This document shows positions 1,666-20,000 of a DNA stretch of 20,000 nt, piece by piece (position 1 is the first letter of the stretch; each line of letters begins with the position of its first letter). The stretch comes from Elsinoe ampelina. Its lineage: Eukaryota. The stretch covers positions 286,143 to 306,142 of the forward strand of contig ML992513.1 in NCBI GenBank assembly GCA_010093995.1. The letters run 5' to 3'. The notes under the pieces are model-generated. The model was given only the letters and a program-made list of their open reading frames with translations, ran no database searches and was not told the DNA's origin. The translations under genes were made by a program, and so were the position numbers.

Positions 1666-3332
1666 TCAAATCGTCTCTACTCTCAACATAGCCGGCACCC
1701 CTTGCTGCAACCCAGCACTAACCCCACTCGTCCTACTCTCCATCCCCTCCGCATCCCCTCCCCTCTCCCTCAACGCCTCCTGTAAACTAATCACACTCCC
1801 CTCCTCTCCCCTTCCCCCCTCGTGGCCCCTGGCAAACACCCGCCTTATACCCCTCGCCAACCTACTCCCTCCCACAAACACCCCGTTCGTATTAAACACC
1901 TCCTCGATACCCTCCAAACTCAACCCCTTGGTTTCCGGCATGAACGACCACAGTAACACCACGCTCGTGAGGCAGAATCCGCCGAAGAGGAAATACGCCC
2001 CGTAACTACTCTCCGCTAGAAAGATAGGCGTGAGGATTGTGACGAGCCAATTCGTGAGGAACCCGATCCCCTGCGCGACGCAATTCGCCATGCTGCGCGT
2101 CTGGGGAGGTTGGATCTCGGAGGCGTAGATCTTGCCTACAATACCCCATGTGCAGCAGTAGGTCAGGCCGAAAATGAAGACGAGGGAGATGACGAGGAAG
2201 CGCGCGGGCGAGGTGGGGGTTATGGCGTTGCTGGCGTAGAGGGAGCCGATGAGCAGCATGCAGGTTGTGAGAATCAGGCCGCCGGTGAGGGTAATGGAGC
2301 GGCGGGTGAAGCGGTCGGTGAGGAGGAGGGCGGGGATGGTGATGGCGAACATGAGGATGGCGGAGACGCCGGACGCGATGAAGGAGGCGGTGGTGGCGGG
2401 GAGGCCGGCTTGAGCGAACAGGCGGGGCGCGTAGTAGAGGACGCCGTCGATACCGGAGAGTTGGATCATGCCGAGCATGATTAGGGCGAGGGTGGTGCGG
2501 GTGCGGTAGGGGGCGGAGAAGATGGTGAAGATGGCGGTGAGAGGGTTGGGCTGGGCGGTGATGGTGCGAGCGGCGGAGGGGCCGAGGAGATCCTTTTCGG
2601 CTTCGATAGGGGAGAAGTTGAGTCGTTCTAGTTGGCGGATGGCGTCAGAGCGGCGGGATTGGAAGAGCAACCAGCGGGGAGATTCAGGTAGGAGGTTGCA
2701 AATGATGGCGAGGAGAAGACCCATGCCGGCTTGGATGATGTAGATGGAACGGAAGGACCAGATGGAGTCGACCTTGACGGTGCCGTATGCAGTAAAGTAC
2801 CCACAACAGATGCCGAATACTACACCAAGTTGAGGAGTCGCCATGAGCATACCACGTCGCATTGACGGAGCGATCTCGGTGACGTAGACTGCTTGAGGGG
2901 CCATCCAGGTGCCCATCCCAATGCCGCCTATCGCACGACCAGCGAGGAAGATCGAAAGCTTCGGGGCCATTCCCTGCAGAAGAGCGCCAACGACGAAGAG
3001 GAGAGCACCAATCATGATCGCTCGTAGTCGACCGACATAATCCGCAAGCTGTCCAGCATAGATTGACGGGAATGCACCTGTCAGTAAGATCATCGATACC
3101 GTGAGTCCATGCATGAAAGGAGTGAGTTCGCCGAAGGTCTGATGGAAGTATGGCATTTCGGTCACTGCTCCGGCTGAGCCTGTATCGTAGCCATTGAGCC
3201 AACCTTTTGGCTGTCAGTAGACCGTCAAACGAAGCCCTCAAGGGCGTTCTTGCCTGCTACCGAGATGAAGCAAGTCGCGACCACATAGCCGGGAGGCTTG
3301 AATATCCTTGGGGAGACTACGCCGAATGTCAT
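1666..3332 (-). CDS. MFS sugar porter family transporter, ~538 aa, 2 exons (3332-3254 and 3203-1666)
   Basis: Sugar-porter motifs GYDTG, LADYVGR, EIAPSMRRG, PESPRWL, QLSGIDGVLYY, DRFTRR, SEIQP, PETKGLSLE and many hydrophobic segments. The frame extends upstream of the ORF-track start (GWLNGYDTGSAGAV). Exon 1 MTFGVVSPRIFKPPGYVVATCFISVA joins across a 50-nt intron to give SVAGWLNGYDTG. Confidence 0.93.
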
Positions 3333-4121: not shown

Positions 4122-6046
4122 ATAGATACTAATACCTTAATAGCTAGAACACCTATTATTCTTGCTATATTAGCTAAATAGGCTAGCTAGCTATATATTA
4201 TTAAGATAAGAGTATTAAATACTAAGATATAGAACCTTATTAATCCCTAGAAAACTATTAAACTAGAAGGGCTTCCTAAGCCTTAGAGGCTAAAGGTAGT
4301 AAATACTAACTTCTTAGTATTCTTCTAGATATATAAGGAGGAATAAGCATAATATAACAAATAGTATAAGGCCTTAACTAATTTAGCTAGCCTTATTTAG
4401 TTATTAATTACACTATAAGTTCTTACTATTATCTAACTAGAAGGGGATCCTTATCTATAGGCTATCCTTAGAGTATTAAAGAATAGATTTACTCTATCTA
4501 ATATAGCTATTTAGCTTAAGGTTAAAGCACTCTAGAGGAAGTAGCTATCTAGCTCTTCCTTATAGAATATAGACTATTAGCTTTAGTAATAGAAAGAGGT
4601 TATAGANNNNNNNNNNNNNNNNNNNNNNNNNNNNNNNNNNNNNNNNNNNNNNNNNNNNNNNNNNNNNNNNNNNNNNNNNNNNNNNNNNNNNNNNNNNNNN
4701 NNNNNNNNNNNNNNNNNNNNNNNNNNNNNNNNNNNNNNNNNNNNNNNNNNNNNNNNNNNNNNNNNNNNNNNNNNNNNNNNNNNNNNNNNNNNNNNNNNNN
4801 NNNNNNNNNNNNNNNNNNNNNNNNNNNNNNNNNNNNNNNNNNNNNNNNNNNNNNNNNNNNNNNNNNNNNNNNNNNNNNNNNNNNNNNNNNNNNNNNNNNN
4901 NNNNNNNNNNNNNNNNNNNNNNNNNNNNNNNNNNNNNNNNNNNNNNNNNNNNNNNNNNNNNNNNNNNNNNNNNNNNNNNNNNNNNNNNNNNNNNNNNNNN
5001 NNNNNNNNNNNNNNNNNNNNNNNNNNNNNNNNNNNNNNNNNNNNNNNNNNNNNNNNNNNNNNNNNNNNNNNNNNNNNNNNNNNNNNNNNNNNNNNNNNNN
5101 NNNNCTATTCTATAGTAATACCTTACTTAGTATTAAGAGTTAAAGAACTATTAATATTATAGCTCTTTATAAAGGAAAGTCTATAACTATCTATCTTATA
5201 AAGGTAGCCTATATACTATTAATTATAACTAATCTAGTTAGCCTTAGGAGGTTTATTAATAGTAGAGTCTACTAGAACACTTAAACTATAGAGATTAGCT
5301 ATAAAGGAAAAGTACTCTTCTTAGTTATACTAAAGTATAACTAATATATCTTTAAGAATAACTCTAAAGCTTCTAATATTACTACTATAGTATTAAGGAA
5401 TAATAATAATTGTCTACTATTAGTATTTACTATAGTTACTATAAGGACTAATTAATCTTAGTATAAAGTTATAGACTATCTAAGCCTAGAGTCTATTAAT
5501 TACCTTTTAACTGCTATAGTTAGTAGTAAACTAACTCTAACTAAGCCTAGTTTAGCTTAACTAATTTATCTTAGGTCTCTATATTAGACTTATAAGCTAT
5601 TAAATACTTAGTAGATTATATTAAGAAGCTCTAACAATAAACTTACTATATTAAAGCTATTTAAGAGAACTACCTTTAATATTATTATTAATAGATTTAC
5701 TAGCTATAATAAGGTAAGATATATAAGCTACTTTACTTATAGGACTACTAACTATTAACTAGTTACTACTTATACTTATAGATATAAGATTAATAAAATC
5801 TATATTAAGATAATTACTTATATTAAAAGTAATTTTAGCTTCAAAATTAAATTCCTTAGAAGTAATAATAAGAGAGCCTTTAGCCTTAAATTTACTATCT
5901 TCCTAAATAGTAAAGAAATCTATTATAAGCTATCTACTTTCTATACTTAAGCTTAGAATAGTTATAATAAAAGGATAGAAGCTATACTATTAAGGAGAGT
6001 AAGGGCAATTACTATCTTTACTAATCTACTAAGGGAATTATACTCT
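4122..6046 (+). pseudogene. Copia gag-protease-integrase, 5' part (spans the assembly gap), RIP-inactivated
   Basis: Start ATA (RIPed ATG) at 4122. In-frame stops are TAG/TAA at positions that read as Trp/Gln in conserved motifs. Confidence 0.8.
4607..5104. other. Assembly gap (498 N)
   Basis: Run of N between the copia gag and protease segments. Confidence 1.
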
Positions 6047-6233
6047 TATTAAAGCCTTATATTAAAGCTATATATATCGTAATATAGAGAACGCCTATTT
6101 AACTAAATAGTCCGTTAGTAGTAGAACTAATTACTATTAAGCCCCGGGCGTAAGCGCTACGTAGGATATTTAAGTACATTATGTAAGCGGAACTAGCTAC
6201 TACTAAGTGCCGCTCTAATACTAAGCTCTTATA
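6047..6233 (-). repeat. 3' LTR of G1
   Basis: Ungapped direct repeat of 12551-12737 with 13 mismatches by my count, all transitions. Termini TA...TA are RIPed TG...CA. Confidence 0.95.
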
Positions 6234-6237
6234 ATTG

Positions 6238-6248
6238 CCTCCTCCTCT
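6238..6248 (-). other. Polypurine tract of G1
   Basis: Minus strand AGAGGAGGAGG ending 4 nt before the 3' LTR. Confidence 0.8.
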
Positions 6249-6671
6249 AGGAGAGCTATCCTTAGCTCTCGACCGGAAGTGTGTAATATATAGTATTATT
6301 TAGAGGTAATATAGGCGTAAGGTAGTTAAGGCATTTTTATAAAGGCCTCGTATATGTCTTATATAATGTCTAGTAGTAGTAGTCCTAGGAATCTAGTTCC
6401 TAGGGGAGCGTTTGTCTAGTCGCTATAGCGCTAAAGCTAATCGGCAGTAATAATATTACTTTTCTTAGAATTTCTAGTAGTATTATAGGAGATATACGCC
6501 TTGTGCTAGTAGCTATAATAAAGATATAGTACACTAGAGGTTAGTCTATATTATCTTATTATTCCCCCTTATGTTCTTCTTTTCTACCTAAAACACATTT
6601 ATATTTTATTAACCTCTTACTATATAAGTATACTACCTATAACTATTATATTATTTAACTCCGGCCCCCCT

Positions 6672-7443
6672 ATAGCTAACACTTATAGCGTAAGGTCTAC
6701 TAGCGCCTAGGGAGCTATTACTGCTAGCGCTAACTCTATAACTCTCTTACTTTCTAAAGAGAAGGCTAATACCTATACTAGGTATACTAATAGCGTCGCT
6801 AAGAGTAAGCTAATAGAGCTCTTATAAGGGACATAACTAATTTATAGTAGGTCGTGTCTATACTAGAGGTAACTTTAGTATCTTCTTCTATTATAAGTGC
6901 GAACACTACGCCTATAATAAGTATATATACGAGCTACTTCTATCTATCCTATATAACTTATACATCGACGCCTTTAACATAGTTACTAAGCTTAAGGCCC
7001 CCGACTAGGCCGGCATCACTGTAGCTAAGAAGTATATATATACTATAGCCTATAAGAACGTCTCTAAGGTTAAGAAGTTTAAGACTATACTTAAGGTATA
7101 CTACACTAATAAGAACAAGGTCGTTAGTAAGGTCTTAACTCCTCGTATAGGGCCTATAGGTAGCTTACTTAGTAGTGTTATACTTAAGCGTAAGAAGGTT
7201 AAGAAACTATAGAAGATTAGGTATAGCCTTTATAGCTTAATTACTATCGGCAAGGAGGTAAGTTAAACTATGCTCTATATGCGTTATAAACATAGCTAAT
7301 AGGTTTAGATAGTGCGTAACTCTAGTAGTTCTACTACTAAAATCGACTATATTATAGCTAGTAGGTAGCTTATAGCCCCTATAGCACCTATAGGGGAGAA
7401 TCTTAGTATAGAGGTAAACGAGGAGGATAGTAAGGATAAGTAG
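6672..7443 (+). pseudogene. Antisense accessory gene inside G1: 3 exons (6672-6804, 6851-7257, 7309-7443), ~224 aa, six-Cys cluster plus helical region plus acidic tail; RIP-damaged
   Basis: Only four in-frame stops (TAG at 6708, 7006, 7210, 7366) over 225 codons in TA-saturated DNA. Introns are GTAAGC...CTAAT...TAG (6805-6850) and GTAAGT...GCTAAT...TTTAG (7258-7308). Intron 1 repairs a frame change. De-RIPed pattern is C-x2-C-x9-C-x12-C-x2-C-x6-C, with one intact TGC and five TAT/TAC codons. Confidence 0.72.
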
Positions 7444-7641
7444 GCACATACGAGACAGGTGTACGTCCCTAGCGCTATACCTATAATAAGGCCTTATATA
7501 GAGCATAATAGAGCATAGAGTTTAGGTTAATACCCGTAATAGTAGCGCAAGTATAGCGCTTTATTAAAATATATTTCCCTAGGTAAGGAGTCTACTCTTT
7601 ACTCTATTTATATATTTATATAATCTATCTACTTATATACT

Positions 7642-10600
7642 CTATAATCTACGCCTTTAGTAACCTTTCTTAGCTACTCTTAGCTATAACTTGTATATAG
7701 TAATTAGCTCTCTTATATTTACGTAATTCTCTTTAGGTTCCTAGCTATTAAACTTAATAGGCTAGTCCTTCTACTTTACTAAGTAGAATACCTTACCCTT
7801 TGTAGTTCTCCTGCCTAGAATCTTCTCTACTATCTACTTATCTACTTCGTTAGCGAGAGGTATACTCTCTTCTAGCTCCTTACTAGCTTTACCTATCTAT
7901 AGTTTAAGAAGAGATATATAAAAGACATTATAGATGTAATACTAACTCAGTAAAGCTAGGTAATACGCCTATAATTTAATTGTGTCAAGTATATAGAATA
8001 GGCTAAGGAATTGTAGTTCTATCTTCTTCTTTAGTATAGGTAGCTATAAGTTCTTAGCCGAGAGTAGTACTAAGTTACCTATACTATATACCTTTAGTAT
8101 ATACTTCCTATTGTAGTACTTAGCCTAGTAGGCGGAAGCCTCTTTCTATTACTCTACTAGCTTCGTATATATGTCTTATAAGCGTTATACTAACTCTACT
8201 ACTACTAGTACTCTTCTCTCTAAAGTCTTGTCCCGAGACTTAATAGCTATTACCTCTAACTCTAGATAGTAGCTATATATTATTTAGAAGAGGCTTATAC
8301 GTAGTATAGTATAAACGCTATTATTGCTTATAAATTCCACTTGTAATAGACGTTCGGCCTAGTCGTTCTATAGCTCTATATAGTAGTACCTTAGGTACTA
8401 TTCTAACATCTAGTTTTACTACTTAGTTTAACTATCTATCTACGAGTAAAAGGCTATACTAAGCCTACGCTTTATATACGTTTCGTAACAGAATTTACTC
8501 TAGAACTAGCTAGTAAAGACCGATCCTCGATTGCTTACTATTCCCCCCTAGGACACTATAATAGCGAATAACGTAGTTATATAGAATCTCTGCTAGCTCT
8601 ATAGACGTGCACTTCTTAGTAGTAGGGATATATAGTAATATCTTAGTGTAATAGTCTACAATTACTAGTACTATATTATAGACGCTACTACCTCGCTTGC
8701 TCGGTAGTAGGTTAGTAATAAAATCTATTATAATTTCTTACTATAGGCGGTCTAGTATCGGTAGCGTACGTAGCTCGCTATAGAGGTAATAGTAGCGCGC
8801 CTTATACTTCTAGCAAACTTAGTATAACTATATATAGTTATTAATATCTTTTCTTATAGTTAGCTAGAAGTATTTCTATAATAGGAGCTTAAGCGTCTTA
8901 TCCTTACTAAAGTAACTAGCCTATTCGCCGTTATAGTATATACATAGTATCTATGCCTTAAGCGCGCTATTATTCGGAATAACTAGTAACTCTTTATAGA
9001 AGAGAAGATTATCTTATATATTCTATAGCGCTCTACTTTTGTCTCTACTACTCCCCGCTTATAAACGTAGCTTTATAATCTCGAAGTCTTATTCTTATAG
9101 TAGCTCTACTACTAACATTAGGTTAGTAGACGAATCTTTAAAGGGATCCTCCCTTATAGTTGCTATAACTACGACTCGCTAGGTCGTTATAAGCCTCTAG
9201 AAGTTCTTAAAAGAGAAGTTACTACTATACGGCGTATAGGTAGCCTAGGCCTGTCCTAGAGTAGCCTTGTATATAGCGTAGATATGTCTAATAAGCGGAG
9301 TAGCTTTCTTAACGTTAGTAGTCTAGTCCTATATATAAAGCTTGTTCTAAAGGGTAGAAAGGAGATATAATACCTCTTACTCTTCCGCTACGTAGTTAAG
9401 GCGCCTCGAGAGTGTATTAGCTAGGTTCCTCGTGCCTAGCTAATGCTCTATTATAAAGTTAAAAGCAGTAAGGAAGGTAGCCTAGTAAGCTTATTAGCTA
9501 TTTAGCTATTTTAGCTTTATAAATCCTTAGAGATTATTATAGTTAGTAAGTACTTAAATTATATATAAGGCACCTTCGAGGTAGTATTACTATTACTTAA
9601 ATATATATACAATTACTAATAGCTCTTAGTTATACATCTCGTAATTATACTTAGCTAGGATAAACTTCCTTAACTAAAAGGCTATTAGGTGCTAAGCACT
9701 ATTAAATAGTTAGGACAGAATCGCTGCTACTATAAACTTTAATATATTACTTTTAATATATAGGGGCAGCGTAGAATTATAGTAGCAGAGAATAGAGGTA
9801 CGCGTAAATATGTCTCTAATGTCCTTAAACGTCTACTATTTACTTACGCTCTACATAAAAGAGCTATACTTACGACCTTTTACTAAGCCTTTAAGGAGGC
9901 TAGAGAGGGGGGTAATAATCTTAGAGTAGTACTACACGAACTAATAATAGAAGTTTATAAAGCTAGTAAACTACTAGACCTTATAATAACTCTTTAGCCT
10001 CGGCTAATTCTTAATTATAGTTACTCTACTAGGATCTATTAAGACGCCTATAGTAGAGATAATATAGCTAAGAAATTCTACCTCCTTAGTAAAGAATTTA
10101 CATTTCTTAAGGTTAGTATATAAAGTAAACTTCTATAGCCTCGCTAGAATCTTATAAACGTAATATATATAGTTCTCTCTTAAATTGCTATAGATAAGAA
10201 TATTATCGAGGTAGACAATATAGATAGTATTAACTAGCTTACCTAGCGCCTTATTAATATACACTTAGAAGGTAGCTAGGGCATTAGTTAATCTAAAAGG
10301 CATAACTAAGTACTTAAAATAGCTATAGCACATACGGAATATAGTCTTCTACTTGTCGCTATACTTAATAGGGATCCTATAATAGGCATCCTTAAGATCT
10401 AGCTTCGAGAACTACTAGGCTTACCTAAGCTAATTAAGCGTCTTACTAATAAGTAGAAGCGGGTAGCGATTCTTAATAGTTACCTCGTTTAAGCCCTAAT
10501 AATTTATATATAAGTATAGACTACTATCTTTCTTAGGCACGAACAGGATAGAAGTACTTATCTCGCTTATAGAGCGCCTAATCTACCTATTTAATTAAGT

Positions 10601-11338
10601 AGCCTCGAGATAGTTCTTAAGTACTTTAAGCTCTTTAACTAAAAGATTATATAAGGGCTAAAATAGAGACCTTCTACCTAGCTCTAGCTTAATTACATAC
10701 TTAGCGCCTAGAGGGCGTAGTAGATTTATAATATCCTTATAGACAAAGACATCGAAGAACTCTATAAACTCTAATAGTAGAGCTAGGTCGTCTACGGCGT
10801 AAGTATAGTCCTTAGACAGAGTCTATACTATAGTATATACCCTCGGCTTGTTCTTAAGGTCCTTTATAAAGTCTTCTAGTTCGCGTAAGTAAACTATATA
10901 TAAGGAGTAGCTATACGACTAGTTGTCTATAGCGCTATCTATAATTATATACTATCTTCTCTACTATAGGCACTCTAAAATAACTAGAGGGCCTAGTCCT
11001 AAGTCTATAGCGTAGAAGAGGCTAATTGTCTCTCTAAGGTTACTATAGAAGTCTACTAGGCGTACGTAAAGCTAGTGCGCGCTATAGTAGAATTCGGCTT
11101 ACTCTATAAAGAAAGAGATACTTAGATACTAAGTATGCTTAACTCTTAGTAGATTATAACGAAGAGTAAATGCCTAAGACACAAGATTAACTTCTATATA
11201 ATTGTCTATAAGGAACGTATAGTTTTTGTGCTCTATAGGCACTATAATAGCGCTATAATAGGGCAGCGATAGATAAGTGTTAATTAGGAGAGAAGAAGGG
11301 CTTAGTTACGCTCTTTAGCTAAGCCCTTAGAGTTTCCC
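7642..11338 (-). pseudogene. pol: G1 pol (protease, RT, RNase H, integrase, chromodomain)
   Basis: FLIDN protease site (~11201-11215), FSKLDLKDAY (~10382-10411), IVYLDN = YLDD (10219-10202), integrase I(M)DFIT (~8715-8735), IVS(D)RGSVFTS (~8510-8540), RLSTAFHPQTDGQT de-RIPed (~8425-8470), chromodomain VEKILGRRTTKGKVFYLVK(W)KD(W)P...S(W)EP (~7735-7835). One extra base in a C6 run at 8543-8548 shifts the frame. The 3' end is approximate. Confidence 0.93.
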
Positions 11339-12510
11339 GACTTAGAGTTATTAGACTTGTCTATAGTAGTAACCTTATACACTGCCTAAGACTCGCTATT
11401 CTTCTATAGGTGCTTCGACTTATACTCCGGCTTAATATAACTAGTTTTACTACAACTATAGTACTTAGCGTTTCTCTTCTACTTATCGAAGGAACCTCCT
11501 TACCTACTAAACTATTTAGTAGGTAAGTTAGTAGCTTTACGCTTATAGTAAGCTTAAGAGCTACTACTAGACTAGTAGTAGTATTCTTCTCGAGAGCTAC
11601 TATAACTACTATACTTACGTAGGTAGTTACTTTTATCTTTCTATATAGTATACTTACTACTAGTATAGTCTATAGACTTAATACGTAAGCCTAAAGAGAC
11701 TAACTTCTAGCACGTAGCTAGAATAGTATAGTGTTTAATAATAGTAGTACGTAGCATAGGCTATAGCTTAGTAAGGAGATAGTATACCCTCTACTCTTTA
11801 GAGTAGAGAGCTAGTTACTTCTTAAGGGTAGTAAGTTCTAAGGCGAAGGCCTAGATAGATTAGCCCTTATATTGTTAGGCTCCCTTATATATAAGAGTTA
11901 TACGCACTCTACGATTAATAGGGTTATTAACTGCGTTCTATATAAACTAGCGGAATTACTCCTACGTATAGTCTTCTAGGCTATCTATATAGTAGTAGTA
12001 GTACTATATCTTATCTAGCTCGCCTATAAGGAATATAACTTTATATAGCACCTTCTACTAGTTAGTAGAATAAGCCTTAGGGGCTAGAGTAAAGATAACC
12101 TCGAGATTCTTTAGGAAGGATCTTACCTCTTTTAGAGTCTTACTCTAGTAGAGATAGAGTTCCCTTAATCGAGGTTGTCTAGAGAATAGCCTTACGAATA
12201 GTCCGCCGCTACTATATATACTCTATATGCTAGTATTACTTACTATAGGCTTAGTAGAAGCACGCGAGCTATAGTCGAAGCCTCCTTAGTAGTATTCTAT
12301 ATCGCGTATATAGTGTATTTACTTAATCTCTTCCTCGAGGCTCTAAGCCTTAAGCTTTAGCTCTAAATACTTATACTTAGCATATAGGTGTAGTAGCTAC
12401 TCCGTAAGGGTCTCTTCTTTCTCTAGGGGAGTCTACTCGATAGAGTCTATCTCTATAACATTAATTACGTAAGGTACTAGCGCCTCGCTAATAGAGTTCT
12501 AGTTGTCTAT
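11302..12510 (-). pseudogene. gag: G1 gag
   Basis: ATA (RIPed ATG) at 12510 is in frame with the zinc knuckle K[C]YSC[G]KT[GH]IKPE[C] (~11420-11466) and with the slippery site G GGA AAC. Stop TAA at 11304-11302. Confidence 0.82.
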
Positions 12511-12550
12511 AGAGTCTAATAGATTACAACTGTAGGGGAGTAATTAGAAC

Positions 12551-12737
12551 TGTTAAAGCCTTATATTAAAGCTACATATATCGTAATATAGAGAACGCCT
12601 ATCTAACTAAATAGTCCGTTAGTAGTAGAACTAATTACTATTAAGCCCTAGGCGTAAGCGCTATATAGGATATTTAAGTATATTATATAAGCGGGACTAG
12701 CCGCTACTAAGTGCCGCTCTAATACTAAGCCCTTATA
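12551..12737 (-). repeat. 5' LTR of G1
   Basis: Starts TGTTAAAGCC on the plus strand and matches 6047-6233. Gag begins 41 nt inside it. Confidence 0.95.
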
Positions 12738-12742
12738 ACTCT

Positions 12743-13480
12743 AAACTATATAGATTAGTAGCCTATCTAATTAATAGAATACCTCTTAAGAAGCTAGACT
12801 AAAAGACTCTCTTTAAGCTAGTTTATAGATGTCCTCTATTAGTTACTTATCTTAGGCTACTTAGATATAAAGCTTATACTTTAGATAAGCTTATTATAAG
12901 TAGTAATAAGCTTATACTAAGGGCTTATATTAGCTATCTAGTTAGCTATAACTTAACTAACATCTTTAGGATCTTTATATTAGCCTCTAAGAAGGTTATT
13001 AGAATAAGAGATATTAGATTTAATAAAACTTCGTTCTATAAGCTAGAGGAATAACCTTAGCTAAAACTAATTAGATTACTTAATCTACTAAGGCTCCTAT
13101 AGGAGGTTAATAAATCTAAAGGAGTATATAAAGCAGAGAGAATAACTAAACTAAATCTAGTTTAGAATCTAGTTTAGAATCTAGTTTAGAATCTAGTTTA
13201 GCATCTAGTTTAGTATCTAGTTTAGAATCTAGTTTAGAATCTAGTTTAGTAGCCGAACTAGATACTATCTTAGACTCTAAGTTAGAGTAATCTAGATTAA
13301 GAGCTAAGCCTATCTTAGTAGCTAGATAAGAGTTACCCTATTATACTAGATTAGTTACTACCTCTATTAGACTAATTAGAAAAGGCTATTCTAGATCTAA
13401 ACCTAGCTTAGACCTAGGAATCTTTACTAAATAAATAGTTCTTTAATGCTCTAGCCTTACTACTATCTATAGTAGTATAG
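12743..13480 (+). pseudogene. Copia integrase C-terminal half and IN-RT linker (continuation of 4122-6046)
   Basis: Removing G1 plus one TSD copy rejoins ...GAA TTA TAC TCT|AAA CTA TAT AGA TTA GTA GCC TAT CTA ATT AAT AGA ATA CCT in frame (LPRELYPE...AAYLINRTP de-RIPed). Confidence 0.9.
13154..13249 (+). repeat. 12-bp minisatellite, 8 copies of (A/C/T)ATCTAGTTTAG, inside the copia IN-RT linker
   Basis: Directly visible tandem array. In the integrase frame it reads N-L-V-stop, i.e. RIPed (N/H)-P-V-Q. Confidence 0.95.
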
Positions 13481-13943
13481 TGTTACGAACTAGTAGGATA
13501 GCTAGAACGTAGGGACGTTAGGACTAATTAAGCTACTAAGATTATTACGTAACCTGGCCCGACATTTACCCGGTTCTCTATCTTCTCTAGCGGCTCTACC
13601 TCTAAAACTATAGAGCGCGTAGGTTACTAGTAGACGTGTACTCTATATTGCCCCCGACTCTCGCTACGAAGTATATAGAGCATACGGAGAACATAATAGA
13701 GAACACATATATATAGGAATAGTCCTTACCTTATGTAAGTACTATAGTTAACCTCGTCTAGATAGCGAACACTAGTATTACTAAGGCTAGCCTTTATAAT
13801 ACTATCTAATTGTACTTTATTATCTATAGGATATACCTTCTCCGACTCTTACCTTAGTACTATACTACTATAGAAGTAGAACTCCCTCGTTCTTAGCTTA
13901 GCTTAGACTACTAGTGTAGACTGTATTTAGACAGTTCGTAACA
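13481..13943 (+). repeat. 5' LTR of G2 (463 bp)
   Basis: Perfect 11-bp terminal inverted repeat TGTTACGAACT...AGTTCGTAACA. The copia frame is cut at 13480 and gag ATG lies 117 nt downstream. The partner LTR is not in the window. Confidence 0.88.
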
Positions 13944-14059
13944 TTTTAACTACCCTTACTATAGTATAGCACGCTATAAGGTTAATAAGTAACTCTCGCT
14001 CTAAGTTACTATTAGCATCTTCGATTACTAGTAAGCTAGGAAAGCTTACTATTAACGAC

Positions 14060-16045
14060 ATGTCTACTACTAGTTTAACCTCGGGCGAATATAGAAGGTC
14101 TCTTAGTATAGGGGAAGGACGGAGTAAGCCTAAGTTAGAGGTAGAACTCTTCTATAGGGACCGTGCCTACTTAAGGCGCTTCCTTGTTTAACTTAAAGCC
14201 TTCTTCGCTCTAGAGGGAGACAAGTACGCTAACGACGTAGCAAAGGTCCTCTATGCCGGGATACACCTTAAAGGCGCCGCCTTTAGGTAGTTTAAGCCTT
14301 ATATAAGTGGCTACCTAGATAGATAACTAGGCCTAGATATAAAGGCTATCTTTAAGAGCTTTAGTATCTTCTAGGCAAAGATTAAGTAAGTCTTTAACGT
14401 ATCTAATAAGGAACATGTCGCTACGACAAAGATCTAACAACTACGACAACGTAGGTCTATAGCCTAGTACTATTTCTAGTTCTAATAACTCGTAATGTAC
14501 CTAGACTAGAATAATAGTACTAAACATTTAGTATTCTACTAAGGACTAAGCGACTTAGTTAAAGACTAAATGATACTCGAGCTACCTAATAGCCTCTAAG
14601 AACTAGTAGATACCGTAATTGCTATTAATAACCGACTTTATAAACGACGTATAGAACGTTATAGAGGATATAAGGCAAACACTAGATATACGCGTTCCTC
14701 CCGAAACTATAGAGACCCTATAGAACTTAACGCTATACGCGAAGGTTGCCCCTTATAGGTATAAGGCTAAAGTTGTAGAGGAAAGTTCCTTAGTAGAAAA
14801 GAGAGAGAGAAGTATAGATAAGACAATCTATGTTTTAAGTGTAAAAGACTTAGGCATCGAGCTAGGGACTACCGACAAGGGGTACTAGCTAATAGATTAC
14901 ATATAATAGTTACTAGGCTAGTAGAGAAAAAGGCCGACACTACTATAGAAGACCTAACGACCTTTAGCGTAGGTAAGGAAATATAGAAGAAGTCTACGAC
15001 AACTCGAGAGGTAATAGAATCCTCTCCGGATGTTACGCTTAATATCTCTATAACTAACAGCGAATAACAAAGTTAATACGCAACGCTATTATAGATAGCA
15101 TATTATAATAACTCTTATTATATTTACTTATTAGACAAGTAGGGATCTAGTTAGTTCCTATATAAGCTATCTAAGCGTAGGTAACTAACGAAATAGCTAG
15201 ACTAGGAACTTAACCTAGAAGAGCTCTCTATAATTAGTAGTAACAGTAACTAACCTTAGAAGGTAGTTAGCGACAATTACTAATATACAATTATCGAGAC
15301 GAAGTATTAGGACGCGAGTGCTATATAATAATATAGTAGCCTTACCTTTAGCCTTTATAGCGAACTATAAGGAAAGGCAAATTATATATCGCTCTAGAAA
15401 TATACAAATCTAGATTGCGAATAGTACTATACTATTTACTTACACGATGTACTTAGAGAAGAGGCTATTAGTCTTAAATATACTACGGACTTCTCGGTAA
15501 TTGAAATAGGTAGTACTATTCCCTATAGCTAAGTACGGGAATGTACTTAGTATAGCCTTACTAACTATAACTATACTAGAGATAGTAGCGACGAAGAGGA
15601 ATATAACGAAGAATATGCCGAACAACTATAATATAACAACATAGATAACAATTTATCTAATAACAACAATAACGTACTACTATCGGGCAGACGACTTAAA
15701 GTATACCTTATAGGGATATAGAGAAACTATATAATAATATACACCTATTACTAGAATAGAACATAACAAGACAAATCTACTTAACCTACTTTCGTCTTTA
15801 ATGCTAATACCTAGCTACACCTAGAGGGAATAGTTATACTAATATAAGTATATAACACTACTTAGTGTAACTAATAGAGGATTATCGAACTTTACGGTCA
15901 TTAAGGAACTTAAGCACTAGAAGTCTACCTTGCTATGTTAAACAATAATAAGACACGACTAGCCTAATAGGTATAATATTAATAATAGATACGTGCGAGA
16001 AGGGATTAACTACTTATCTAAGGCGCTATAATGACAAAAAACTAG
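14060..16045 (+). pseudogene. gag: G2 gag with a long C-terminal extension (~660 codons)
   Basis: ATG 14060; ELFY[G]DRA...LRRFL...KVLYAG...LKGAAFR[W]F capsid-type motif; zinc knuckle CFKCKRL[G]HRARD[C] at 14831-14872. The same frame ends ...ACA AAA AAC TAG at 16045. Confidence 0.85.
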
Positions 16046-19000
16046 CTAGTTATCGCCTAACAAGGCAAGACAATAACACTAGCTAAAGCCTTAATATAAT
16101 AAAGATCTACACGTTAAATTACTTTATACTAGAAGTTAAAATATAAGGGAGTAAGGTAAGAGTAATAATAGATTCGGGAGCTAACTAAAGCTACGTCTCT
16201 ATAATAGTTACTAATTAGCTTAAACCTTATTAACACTAGAAGGAGTTACCTTACCTACTTACTATAGCGGATAGAACCCCTATAGGGAAGGATAGGAAAG
16301 TTACTTAGGAACTACGAAACGTTATAATCTAAATCGAAACATATACGGAAAAACAATTAATCGATATAGTTAACATGTAGTATAATATAGTACTTAGCAT
16401 AGACTAGCTACAACAATATAACCTAGACGTGGACTAGATTAAAGAAACACTTGAATTTCCTAAGTGTAATTATAGAACGTAGGGAGCATAATTAGCTCTA
16501 TAGATACTAACTATAAGGACAGTATAGGTACGACTAATAGTTAGAGCTATCGCTAGCATAAGTAATTAAGTACTTCCGCTAGAATACAAAGACTTCGAGG
16601 ACTTGTTTAAAGAAAGAGAAGGCATTACGGCCTTACTCTAACATAAACTATAGAATTACGAAATACTCTTTAAAGAGAGTAAACCCCCGACACACTATTA
16701 AGGTCTTATACTACTATCGAAACAAGAGGAGGACGTCCTTAAGAACTATATTAATAAGTACTTACTTAAAGGATTTATACAACTATTAAAATCACCTATT
16801 GCGTACGGAGTGCTTTTTGTACCTAAAAAGGATAGAACGTTACGAATATATATTAATTACTAGAAACTTAATGCACTTACTAGGAAGAATTACTATCCTC
16901 TACTAAGGATCGACGAACTTTAAGACCGACTACTTAGAGCTAAATAGTTTACCGTAATTGACATTAGGGACGCCTATTATTAAGTATAAATAAAGGAGAG
17001 CAAGGAGTAGAAGACGGCTTTTAGGACATAATAGAGTCTATATAAGTACCTTATTATACCCTTTAGGTTAACTAATACTCCTATAACCTTCTAAGAGTTA
17101 ATTAATAACACTCTATAAGAATACCTTAATAACTTTATCTTAGTATATTTAGACAATATTATTATCTTCTTAAAGATATATAACAAACACGTAGGACATG
17201 TTCGTAAAGTGCTATAGAAACTAAAAGAAAAAGACCTACTAGTAAAACTCTCTAAGTATAAGTTCTATAAATATAAGATATAATTTCTAAGCTATATTAT
17301 ATCTACTAATAGTATCGGACTCGATCCGAAGAAGATTAAGTTAGTAAATAACTAGCCGGAACCTACGATAGTTAAGGAGGTTTAAGCGCTACTAGAGTTC
17401 TTTAACTACTACTATAAGTTTATAGAAGGATTCTCTAAGGTAGCTACGCTAATATCTAACCTTACGAAAAAGGAAACTAGCTTTGTCTTTAACGAGAGAT
17501 ATAGGTAGGCCTTTAAGGAGCTAAAGCTTAGGCTTATAATAGCACCTATCCTAGTACTCTTCGACCTAGACCGACAAGTACTACTAGAAATAGATGCCTT
17601 AGACTTTGCAATAGAAGCGTATCTAGCGTAGAAGAATATAGAAGGACGACGCTACCCGATCGTATACTACTTACGAAAAATGACTAGACCTAAACTTAAC
17701 TACGACATATACAATAAGGAATTACTTACGATTATAGAAGCGTTCTACGAATAGAGAGTATACCTAGAAGGGACAACCTTACCTATATAAGTCTATACCG
17801 ACTATAAGAACCTTCTATATTAGACAATAACTAAGGTTCTTAATAGACGACAGGTTCGATAGTTAGAAACACTTGTAAGCTATAACTTCTAGATCTACTA
17901 TATTAAGGGATTAGAGAATAGCGGAGTAGACGCTCTTAGCTGCCGGCTAGATTACTTAAAAAACATAACAATAATAGAGGCCTCTATACTAAAGTAGTAA
18001 GACGGCGCTTTAGTCTATAAGTACCTAAAGGTAAAGTAGTTATATAGCCTTACCTAGGAGCTTACGTAAGAACAGAAAAAAGAAGTTATTTAAATATACT
18101 ATAATAACCTAACTATAGGACATAGTAGGATTAATAAGACTATTAAACTTATTATACGAAACTACCTCTAGAAAGAACTCCAAAACGATGTTAAGATGTA
18201 TATCGCTATATACGATATATACTATAAGTCTAAACACTCTCGATATAAACTATATAGCCTACTATAACCCTTGCTACTACTAGACAAACTATAGCAATCA
18301 GTTACGATAGACTTTATAGGACCTCTACTACTATTAGAAGAACCTCTTATAGGTATAAAGTACAATAGTATTCTAGTCCTAGTAGATAGGTTTACGAAGT
18401 ATTACTACTTTATACTATATAAGACAATAGTAACCGCCGAGAATATAGCCTTTACCTTCCTCCGAATAATTGTTTTATAACATAGAGTACTACGAGACCT
18501 AATAACTAACAGGGATAAGCTATTTACGTCATAATTCTAGTAATTATTTATAGACCTACTAGGAGTTAAACATAAGCTATTAACCTCCTTTTACCTATAA
18601 ACGGACGGACAAACTAAATAGGCAAATTAAGTACTAGAGTAGTACCTACGATGCTACCTAAACTATAAGTAAGACTTATAGGCGACGCTATTACTACTCG
18701 TAGAGCTCGCTATTAACAATAGAAAGTTAGTAAATAGAATTTTACTATTCTATATAAACTATAGAATATACCTGGATCTATACTATAACACACTTAGAAT
18801 TAAGCTAGTATCTAAGGATGCTAATATACTAGTAGCTAATATTAAGAAACTATATAACTAGCTATACTACGATATAGTATTTATATTACAAAGAATAGCA
18901 AAGTTTGCTAACTAGAAGAGAATTACAGGACTAATTCTATAGAAGAGAGAGAAAGTTTACCTCCTTAGTAAAAATATTAAAACGAAATAACTAAGCAAGA

Positions 19001-19415
19001 AACTTAACTATACTAAACTAGGACCCTTTAAGATCCTAGAAAAGAAAAATAAGAATATATACAAACTAGAACTACTAAGATATATAAGGATCTACCTAGT
19101 CTTTTATATATTACTACTAAAGAAAGTACTATAGAATGCTATACCTAGACCTATTAAACTAGATAAAGAAACATAGGAGCCATAGTATAAGATTAAAAGG
19201 GTTTTACGTTATAAACTTATAAAAGGAAAACGCTACTATCTTATTTACTAGAAGGAACATTAGTATAGCGAAGTAACATAGGAACTAGAGAAGCACCTTA
19301 CCTCGTAAGTAATTCTAGATTACTAGATCGAGAATCTATCCTAAGTAAACTAACTAGACAGACCTAGCACTCTAAACACTAAATAAAAACGAGAATACTT
19401 AAGGAAGACTACTTA
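16036..19415 (+). pseudogene. pol: G2 pol (protease, RT, RNase H, integrase, chromodomain)
   Basis: IDSGA (16168-16182), IDIRDAY (~16957-16977), YLDN = YLDD (17146-17157), LE[T]DA[S]DFA (~17584), NYDI[HD]KELL (17698), T[M]DF (18304), FHPQTDGQTE de-RIPed (18589-18618), GPF (19021), chromodomain Y[E]I[E]RVL...YLI[HW]KE...T[W]E[P]EKHL (19186-19299). The motifs I frame-checked share one frame. The end is approximate. Confidence 0.95.
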
Positions 19416-19961
19416 ACTAACAGGAGCGCTCTAATTATTACTAAATAAGGAACCTTAATTAGAGTCGAGCATAAATAACTACTAATCCTATAGTAGAACG
19501 GGATCTACCGACAATAGTATTTCCTCTTACTCTAGAACTTAAATACGGGTTTCCTCTAGAGAGATTACTTTCTCCGCCTTGTTCTCTAACTTTTATATCT
19601 CTTTACATAGGTAAAGCTTATTGCCTATAGCTCTTTAATAAGCCTCTTTTGCCTTTTTATAAGCTTCTTTAGCTTCCCTTCTAGTAGCCTTAGCTATAAC
19701 TAATTCCTTTCGTAAACGAATGTACTTAGACTAGAGACACTACTATTTTAATTTTGTTACTTAAATATTATAACTCGAGTAATTACTTACAACACACTAG
19801 CTATAGATACTCGACCGAACATAGACCTTATAGTCTAGCCCCTTCGATTTGCAACGAGAATAAGCCTATAGTATATTAGTTCTAAATAGTTTAATAAACT
19901 CTAAGAGATTCTTTCGTATAGATGTGCTAGATTCGCTATGCCTTTAACAACTAGGAGGCAT
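19413..19961 (-). pseudogene. Antisense accessory ORF inside G2: Zn2Cys6-like cluster plus coiled coil, ~180 aa; RIP-damaged
   Basis: Intact ATG at 19961 (MPPS...). 19862-19770 reads [C]SRCKSKGLD[C]KVYVRSSI[C]S*CVVSNYSS[C], where each [C] is TAT (TGT after RIP reversal), giving C-x2-C-x6-C-x8-C-x2-C-x7-C. An A/E/K/R-rich helix follows (RLRKELVIAKATRREAKEAYKKAKEA...KLENKAEKVISLEETRI). The stop position is approximate. Confidence 0.8.
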
Positions 19962-20000
19962 ATTTAGTACATAGCGCGTAAAGACAAGAAAGAATACTTA

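Follow-up and report, generated by a model that had tools for sequence, protein, structure and literature searches.

A degraded antisense frame at the end of a chromovirus

The DNA examined here (the window) is a stretch of 20,000 nucleotides from the fungus Elsinoe ampelina (contig ML992513.1 of assembly GCA_010093995.1, positions 286,143 to 306,142 of the forward strand). Its right-hand part carries G2 (14261..19330, plus strand), a Ty3/Gypsy chromovirus degraded by repeat-induced point mutation (RIP) and composed of gag, protease, reverse transcriptase (RT), RNase H, integrase, SH3 domain and chromodomain. The Pfam matches on this element are Retrotrans_gag (from about 14261), RVT_1, RT_RNaseH, Integrase_H2C2 and SH3_Tf2-1 (18952-19128). 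The chromodomain at 19186..19330 (plus strand), the C-terminus of the G2 pol, was read by eye in the translation; Pfam Chromo has no match on the RIPed G2 pol frame, and SH3_Tf2-1 was found just upstream. Compared by tblastn with the pol of a related intact element (L002), the G2 pol is 33% identical over pol residues 32-1062 (E 1e-135). Converging on this chromodomain from the opposite strand, and ending about 80 nt from it, is the subject of this study, a RIP-inactivated accessory open reading frame (ORF) of 183 codons at 19413..19961 (minus strand). We consider it highly probable that this frame is a dead copy of an accessory gene of an ascomycete Ty3/Gypsy chromovirus lineage, destroyed by RIP.

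The frame opens with an ATG at 19961-19959 and is not intact: its translation, in which stops are written as X, contains 17 in-frame stops (9 TAG, 8 TAA and no TGA), which makes it a pseudogene copy. By translation and by alignment with intact relatives, the segment at 19770..19862 (minus strand) corresponds to a six-cysteine, Zn2Cys6-like domain with the spacing C-x2-C-x6-C-x8-C-x2-C-x7-C. Only two of the six columns are cysteine codons in the window today, C37 (TGC) and C56 (TGT), and the other four read TAT (Y34 at 19862-19860, Y44, Y53, and Y64 at 19772-19770). TAT lies one RIP-type G>A step from TGT. An earlier note on this DNA, made from the letters alone, had described the ATG, the two cysteine and four TAT codons, the spacing of two, six, eight, two and seven residues and a following stretch rich in A, E, K and R, and the translation bears out every one of these observations.

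The window fits the fungal consensus C-x2-C-x6-C-x5-12-C-x2-C-x6-8-C if either C or Y is allowed at each position. This relaxed pattern occurs four times in the window, and Markov-1 shuffles of 5105-20000 contain it 0.43 times on average. Because 35% of the shuffles yield at least one occurrence, the cysteine spacing alone is weak evidence and does not stand beyond chance.

Two further parts of the frame can be placed on either side of the cysteines. Residues 11-31 (19869..19931, minus strand) form an N-terminal conserved region with the family motif SST.RRK.L..FI..FG..MP, which is helical in the AlphaFold2 model described below, and residues from about 70 to 140 (19542..19754, minus strand) are the remnant of a long E/A/R/L/K-rich helix that the model and its periodicity mark as a putative coiled coil. 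Nineteen nucleotides beyond the antisense ATG, a purine-rich tract on the sense strand of G2 (19980..19994, plus strand) is a candidate polypurine tract (PPT). The window ends at 20000, before any recognisable long terminal repeat (LTR), and the 3′ LTR of G2 would start at about the window end.

The frame belongs to a conserved family

We searched 1.84 billion representative proteins with the X-containing translation of the frame using phmmer. Sixteen proteins matched at E ≤ 1e-3 and three of them at E ≤ 1e-10, with a best E of 1.3e-15. The matching proteins are 69-214 amino acids long and collinear over query residues 11-148 (for example, residues 11-148 against 16-153). A word-based protein search with the RIPed translation gave no match. 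We also built a profile hidden Markov model (HMM) from 23 intact metagenomic ORFs, and its sole match in the six-frame translation of the window is at 19515..19943 (minus strand), where HMM positions 4-145 are aligned with an E of 4.3e-22. Since the homologues are collinear and the profile match is confined to this site, the antisense frame is real beyond chance, and on collinear similarity over most of the protein it is a member of the family.

A profile search among proteins added 38 more, and the relatives overall span 69-219 amino acids. One of them, from Lithohypha guttulata, carries the UniRef name ‘Zn(2)-C6 fungal-type domain-containing protein’, and other relatives from this search are ‘hypothetical’ proteins of Sporormia fimetaria. 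In the ESM Atlas, the protein falls into unnamed Ascomycota clusters with 62-210 members, and a search with the domain alone gave scores of at most 0.82. Longer, fused forms of the family protein were not found; this absence is weak evidence, and it agrees with the earlier note, which had seen no middle-homology region.

All six cysteines are invariant in 14 of 14 intact phmmer relatives and in 22 of 22 intact relatives, and the spacing C-x2-C-x6-C-x8-C-x2-C-x6-8-C holds in all 23 intact relatives. The family consensus around the cysteines reads FG..MP.AC..C...G..CKVHVRSG.C..C......CD..VT.SEW.RL. The cysteine domain is followed by a long E/A/R/L/K-rich segment, then by the motif AEEAI.VEE and by a less conserved tail carrying the motif LALSP.TWS. 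Taken together, these relatives make up an antisense gene family of ascomycete chromoviruses that is widespread and apparently undescribed.

RIP accounts for the decay of the window copy

In the alignment with the family, 100 columns have a majority residue; the window agrees with it in 48 and differs in 52. Allowing only T>C and/or A>G changes, which undo RIP, restores the consensus at 28 of the 52 differing residues. Changes in the opposite direction account for one of the 52, and two transversion controls for 8 and 10. The 28 RIP-explained columns take in all four of the altered cysteine columns, that of His in KVHVRSG (TAT in the window) and that of Trp in the conserved motif SEW (TAG in the window). 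The earlier note had inferred by reversing RIP that the four TAT codons once encoded cysteine and a further TAT histidine. Intact homologues carry Cys at the four columns in 14 of 14 cases and His at the fifth in 12 of 14, and the reconstruction given in that note was essentially right.

The source genome has very many copies of the stretch: run X1 yields 1857 contig pieces at 80% likeness or more. The changes among these copies are transitions in 96 of 97 cases (A>G 22, C>T 31, G>A 27, T>C 16 and T>A 1). Among the 40 of 99 variable places that were listed, positions 19748 and 19739 carry the un-RIPed base in most of the contig depth of other copies; this base would change Lys72 to Glu at the former and Cys75 to Arg at the latter, both of which are the family consensus. 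At 19852 the window retains the TGC codon of Cys37, which is TAC in other copies of the source genome. RIP is the cause of decay in the window copy, which cannot make the protein and is a pseudogene without present function.

Two of the 16 phmmer matches, the gene predictions P0012 and P0016 from other assemblies, have Tyr in Cys columns. They are therefore RIPed copies as well, and the same decay has occurred in other genomes.

The family gene lies between pol and the 3′ LTR

We scanned metagenome contigs and obtained 33 loci carrying the ORF (L001-L033), of which 29 have at least 200 bp downstream of the ORF and are informative about its surroundings. At 27 of these 29 loci, the ORF is followed immediately downstream by the C-terminal end of a Ty3/Gypsy pol on the opposite strand. 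All 17 such pol ORFs that were scanned with Pfam end in SH3_Tf2-1 and Chromo; upstream of these, where present, come protease, RT, RNase H and integrase, and the neighbouring ORFs are gag. The window has the same convergent layout, with the chromodomain at 19186-19330 on the plus strand and the end of the antisense ORF at 19413 on the minus strand. The earlier note had proposed to check whether homologues lie antisense, downstream of chromodomain integrases, and these loci answer that check in the affirmative.

The stop codons of the ORF and of pol abut or overlap: the value is between -9 and +185 nt for 22 of the 23 intact loci, and -102 for the one that has a shortened ORF. The near absence of a spacer to the pol end, which had been remarked on for G2, is thus a trait of the family. 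Thirteen loci have overlaps of 25-185 nt, across which one DNA encodes both the ORF protein and pol. The two exceptions to the convergent layout, L026 and L027, are one locus in two assemblies. Here an intact 175-amino acid member (L027 9977-10504, equal to L026 5087-5614) stands without an adjoining pol among host-like genes (MIF4G/MA3, methyltransferase), and a gag fragment lies 630 bp downstream of the ORF. This locus is either an internally deleted element or, possibly, a copy heading for domestication.

Several contigs close on themselves, with overlaps of 123-127 nt, and two more do so with overlaps of 174 and 149 nt at 99%. These are one-LTR circular assemblies of whole elements, 6.2-7.3 kb in size. 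In L029, a pair of LTRs (1469-1801 and 8776-9108) is 94% identical, and the antisense ATG is 87 nt inside the 3′ LTR. Five further elements have a PPT and, after it, the LTR start (TGTTACG or TGTAATG) at a distance of 46-113 nt from the antisense ATG. On the evidence of these sequences, the family gene is a gene of the element, located between the end of pol and the PPT and 3′ LTR and encoded on the opposite strand.

The LTRs of L008, L011, L022, L023 and L009, read in sense orientation, share the start TGTTACG or TGTAATG and a TATATAG box and contain short tandem motifs such as CTGATCACACTGATCA repeats and TCACGTGAC. Some of them also have CGG..CCG pairs within 60 nt of the LTR start; these were found by eye only, and no enrichment of such pairs in the LTRs was established.

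Purifying selection and a possibly exchangeable 3′ module

An ORF of at least 150 amino acids is kept in 26 of the 33 loci; six are interrupted and one runs off its contig. Pairwise comparison of the 23 distinct intact ORFs gives mean differences of 0.365, 0.317 and 0.616 at the first, second and third codon positions. Usable dS was obtained for 25 of 253 pairs. For these, the median ratio of nonsynonymous to synonymous substitution rates (dN/dS) is 0.33; 23 of the 25 values are below 0.5, and the six closest pairs give 0.05-0.12. Judged from these sequence comparisons, the family protein is under purifying selection. At eight loci (L004, L008, L010-L012, L020, L023 and L024) long open frames also run on the pol strand across the antisense gene. 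These are not the selected frames, because both the codon-position statistics and dN/dS favour the antisense gene.

We compared the history of the ORF with that of pol, represented by the segment from integrase to chromodomain, at 13 loci (among L001-L031) that have both the ORF and the pol C-terminus; the trees came from quick searches, and the groups were named after the trees had been seen. The ORF tree unites the carriers of the x6-type ORF (SH-aLRT 96), and the pol data reject them as one group (delta lnL 117; approximately unbiased (AU) test, p 1.9e-76). Conversely, the ORF data disfavour a pol clade (AU p 0.02). ORF and pol identities are weakly correlated (Mantel r 0.32, a value that 40 of 2000 permutations attain; Spearman 0.09). 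The simplest reading of these sequence data suggests that a 3′ module has been exchanged between related chromoviruses by recombination.

A predicted Zn2Cys6-like domain followed by a long helix

The intact gene encodes a protein of about 150-210 amino acids, which is predicted to consist of a basic N-terminal helix, the six-cysteine domain, a helix of about 70 residues and an acidic/aromatic tail. An AlphaFold2 model built with a 14-sequence alignment has a mean predicted local distance difference test (pLDDT) score of 83. It places a first helix at residues 11-25, two short helices after the two C-x2-C pairs and a long helix at residues 68-136 with pLDDT 92-98, and it leaves the tail at low confidence. 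The hydrophobic profile of the long helix has its strongest periodicity at 3.5 residues, a strength reached by 23 of 5000 shuffles. A heptad-like repeat over this predicted helix is consistent with a coiled coil, as the earlier note had supposed.

A Foldseek comparison of the model with the Protein Data Bank (PDB) gave no match at E ≤ 0.001. Its top rows, which have weak scores, are almost all Zn2Cys6 DNA-binding domains (Pho7, Leu3, Ppr1, Hap1, Gal4, Put3, Lac9 and AlcR), and the domain folded alone (pLDDT 77) returned the same Zn2Cys6 list with the addition of Cep3 of CBF3. When the family profile was compared with PDB sequences, zinc domains appeared below threshold (Leu3 at E 0.13, Lac9 at E 4.7), and the stronger rows were coiled-coil look-alikes such as Gfh1. 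Domain-only relatives have weak matches also to DUF5651 and DUF3716. We therefore call the domain Zn2Cys6-like, because its spacing fits this class and its predicted fold resembles it at weak scores, while its sequence is divergent and mostly stays below the curated Pfam threshold. In Gal4, Ppr1 and Put3 the zinc cluster is followed by a dimerisation helix, to which the predicted long helix of the family is comparable.

Setting of the window

The window consists of a GC-rich genic part at 1-3.3 kb (GC 0.51-0.60) and an AT-rich remainder (GC about 0.13-0.39). The GC-rich flank adjoins the RIPed repeat block and holds an apparently intact sugar-transporter gene of the major facilitator superfamily at 1894-3204 (minus strand; Pfam Sugar_tr, E 3.6e-77). 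An assembly gap of 498 N (4607-5104) falls within the most AT-rich part of the window.

The AT-rich part carries two Ty3/Gypsy elements, G1 on the minus strand and G2 on the plus strand, which are of different families. G1 is bounded by LTRs at 6049-6234 and 12553-12738 (identity 93.5%). Between its chromodomain (about 7690-7830) and its 3′ LTR (6049-6234) lies about 1.45 kb of DNA (6235-7690) that has neither a Pfam match nor a match to the antisense-ORF profile and that could contain an accessory ORF of another, so far unrecognised kind or else be decayed sequence of some other origin. Between G1 and G2, a weak Copia-type SH3_retrovirus match was found at 12844-13040 (E 0.0025), and a 150-bp imperfect palindromic or tandem stretch at 13151-13301 reads as repeated SKLD / LESS units. 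Comparison of the window with itself revealed no second copy of the antisense stretch and no G2 LTR pair.

A proposed regulator and its alternatives

The layout of the predicted protein and the place of its gene led us to propose a model in which the intact protein would bind two zinc ions through its six cysteines, dimerise through the long helix and bind DNA in the manner of a minimal Gal4-type factor, with the acidic/aromatic tail as an effector segment. Expression would come from antisense transcription starting within or next to the 3′ LTR; with no more than 46-113 nt between the ATG and the edge of the LTR, the 3′ LTR read backwards would have to supply the promoter and the greater part of the 5′ leader. 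The obvious target would be the LTR of the element itself, where the protein might regulate LTR-driven transcription or the relations of the element with its host. For this zinc-binding, dimerising, DNA-binding regulator as a whole, we see an about even chance. More tentatively, and as a possibility that we rate as less likely than not, the family may be a miniature Gal4-type factor encoded on the antisense strand of a lineage of ascomycete chromoviruses, expressed from the 3′ LTR and acting as a dimer on LTRs or host promoters, where it would set the balance between sense and antisense transcription or evade silencing; it would then be a counterpart to HBZ of human T-cell leukemia virus type 1 (HTLV-1), carried on a module that recombination moves between chromovirus lineages.

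Several observations weigh against the model or against parts of the case on which it is built. The earlier note had suggested scoring the domain against the Pfam Zn_clus model (PF00172), whose gathering threshold is 21 bits, and this check mostly failed: the frame in the window has no Zn_clus match at E ≤ 0.1, none of 14 full-length relatives reaches the threshold (four score 10.5-12.9 bits), and just one of 22 domain-only relatives does so (21.4 bits), with five more at 14.5-17.2. A stricter, PROSITE-type pattern fits only 2 of 23 relatives. Zinc binding, DNA binding, dimerisation and transcription are all properties that we infer. As for the element, the ORF and pol trees disagree, and the gene has not simply been co-inherited with pol; moreover, the 3′ LTR of G2 is outside the window, and the placement of this copy inside the LTRs rests on the purine tract and on the relatives. 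Finally, the four TAT sites themselves (19861, 19831, 19804 and 19771) are not among the 40 of 99 variable places listed for the source genome.

The most sceptical alternative, that the cysteine pattern is a chance product of RIP in a DNA where TAT codons are common, draws on the four occurrences of the relaxed pattern in the window and on its frequency in shuffled DNA. It is refuted by the collinear homologues (E 1.3e-15), by the profile match confined to the site (E 4.3e-22) and by the RIP-directional mismatches (28 against 1), and we give it a negligible chance. The frame could instead be a relic of an ordinary host gene for a Zn2Cys6 transcription factor, or of some other mobile element, beside a truncated G2 and no part of the retrotransposon. 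That the 3′ LTR of G2 is not in the window, that no 5′ LTR repeat was found in 19400-20000 and that the L026/L027 relative has no adjoining pol all fit this view. However, 27 of 29 informative loci have the gene antisense and convergent with a chromodomain pol, the one-LTR circular assemblies and the LTR pair put it inside the element, and even L027 retains its nearby gag fragment, while in the window a purine tract follows the ATG and the stretch belongs to a highly repeated sequence of the source genome. A relic of this kind is very improbable.

Nor do we expect the gene to be a neutral passenger, a piece of host DNA captured by the element and of no use to it, as the discordant trees and the movable module that they suggest might be taken to indicate. 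The low dN/dS in close pairs and the invariance of all six cysteines speak against it, as does the persistence of intact ORFs across elements whose pol, from integrase to chromodomain, is about 43-66% identical, and together they make a passenger improbable. The alternative that deserves more weight, although we still find it rather unlikely, is a real element gene with another role, such as binding to Gag, to integrase or to the RNA of the element, chromatin tethering or an action against host silencing. The family lies mostly below the Zn_clus threshold, the loop between its third and fourth cysteines has an invariant motif of its own (VH.RSG), a canonical basic segment between the second and third cysteines fitting the strict pattern is as rare as stated above, and the CGG..CCG pairs in the LTRs offer no established enrichment. 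Against such a role, the only structural look-alikes are DNA-binding Zn2Cys6 domains, and the succession of zinc cluster, linker, long helix and acidic tail is the layout generally known for Gal4-type factors.

Relation to known systems

Compared with Gal4-type Zn2Cys6 factors (PF00172; domains solved for Pho7, Gal4, Leu3, Lac9, Ppr1, Put3 and Hap1), the family has the cysteine spacing in common in 23 of 23 relatives and a predicted fold that resembles these domains with weak scores. Unlike them, it rarely reaches the Pfam threshold (1 of 22), possesses the VH.RSG loop and a conserved N-terminal helix, is below 220 amino acids without a middle-homology region, and is encoded by a retrotransposon instead of a host locus.

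Retroviruses, too, have antisense genes with transcription from the 3′ LTR, among them HBZ of HTLV-1 and ASP of human immunodeficiency virus type 1 (HIV-1). The likeness to HBZ is one of functional analogy only: in both cases a retroelement would bear, antisense at its 3′ end and starting near the 3′ LTR, the gene of a small protein of dimerising and DNA-binding type. HBZ differs in being a basic leucine zipper (bZIP) protein of an animal retrovirus without homology to the fungal family, for which antisense transcription from the LTR is a proposal.

The nearest published case by description is brtn, an additional antisense gene of the Boty-like Ty3/Gypsy elements of Botrytis cinerea, as presented in passages of three papers (PMC8365987, PMC4227169 and PMC5987419, citing Zhao et al. 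2011, Virology 417:248). Like the gene studied here, brtn is an extra antisense gene besides gag and pol in a chromodomain Gypsy element of an ascomycete, a comparison made by description only. No protein named BRTN is among the 38 profile matches, which is weak evidence against close kinship, and the passages of the citing literature mention neither a zinc cluster nor a function of the product. Elsewhere, antisense additional ORFs (aORFs) have been described in plant LTR retrotransposons (PMC7264820), and an ‘add. ORF with unknown function’ is drawn for some fungal elements (Novikova et al., 2010, PMC2864245). These ORFs likewise stand behind pol and ahead of the 3′ LTR, are conserved within lineages and in some cases run antisense; they differ in belonging to other host kingdoms or in being uncharacterised, and a Zn2Cys6-like product is not described in the passages on them. 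A term search of Muszewska et al. (2011, PMC3248453) found no mention of an antisense ORF in the text it covered, and a full-text literature search returned nothing relevant on retrotransposon antisense genes with a Zn2Cys6 or zinc-cluster product.

Accessory genes of LTR retrotransposons are rare and mostly unexplained, and brtn of Boty is the sole published fungal case that we found. The present example also illustrates that real genes can be retrieved from DNA full of mutations when RIP is read backwards, from TAT to TGT and from TAG to TGG or CAG. If the predicted DNA binding is true, fungal retrotransposons carry a regulator of their own, and this would bear on the timing of element expression, on how elements escape or provoke silencing and on the rewiring of nearby host genes.

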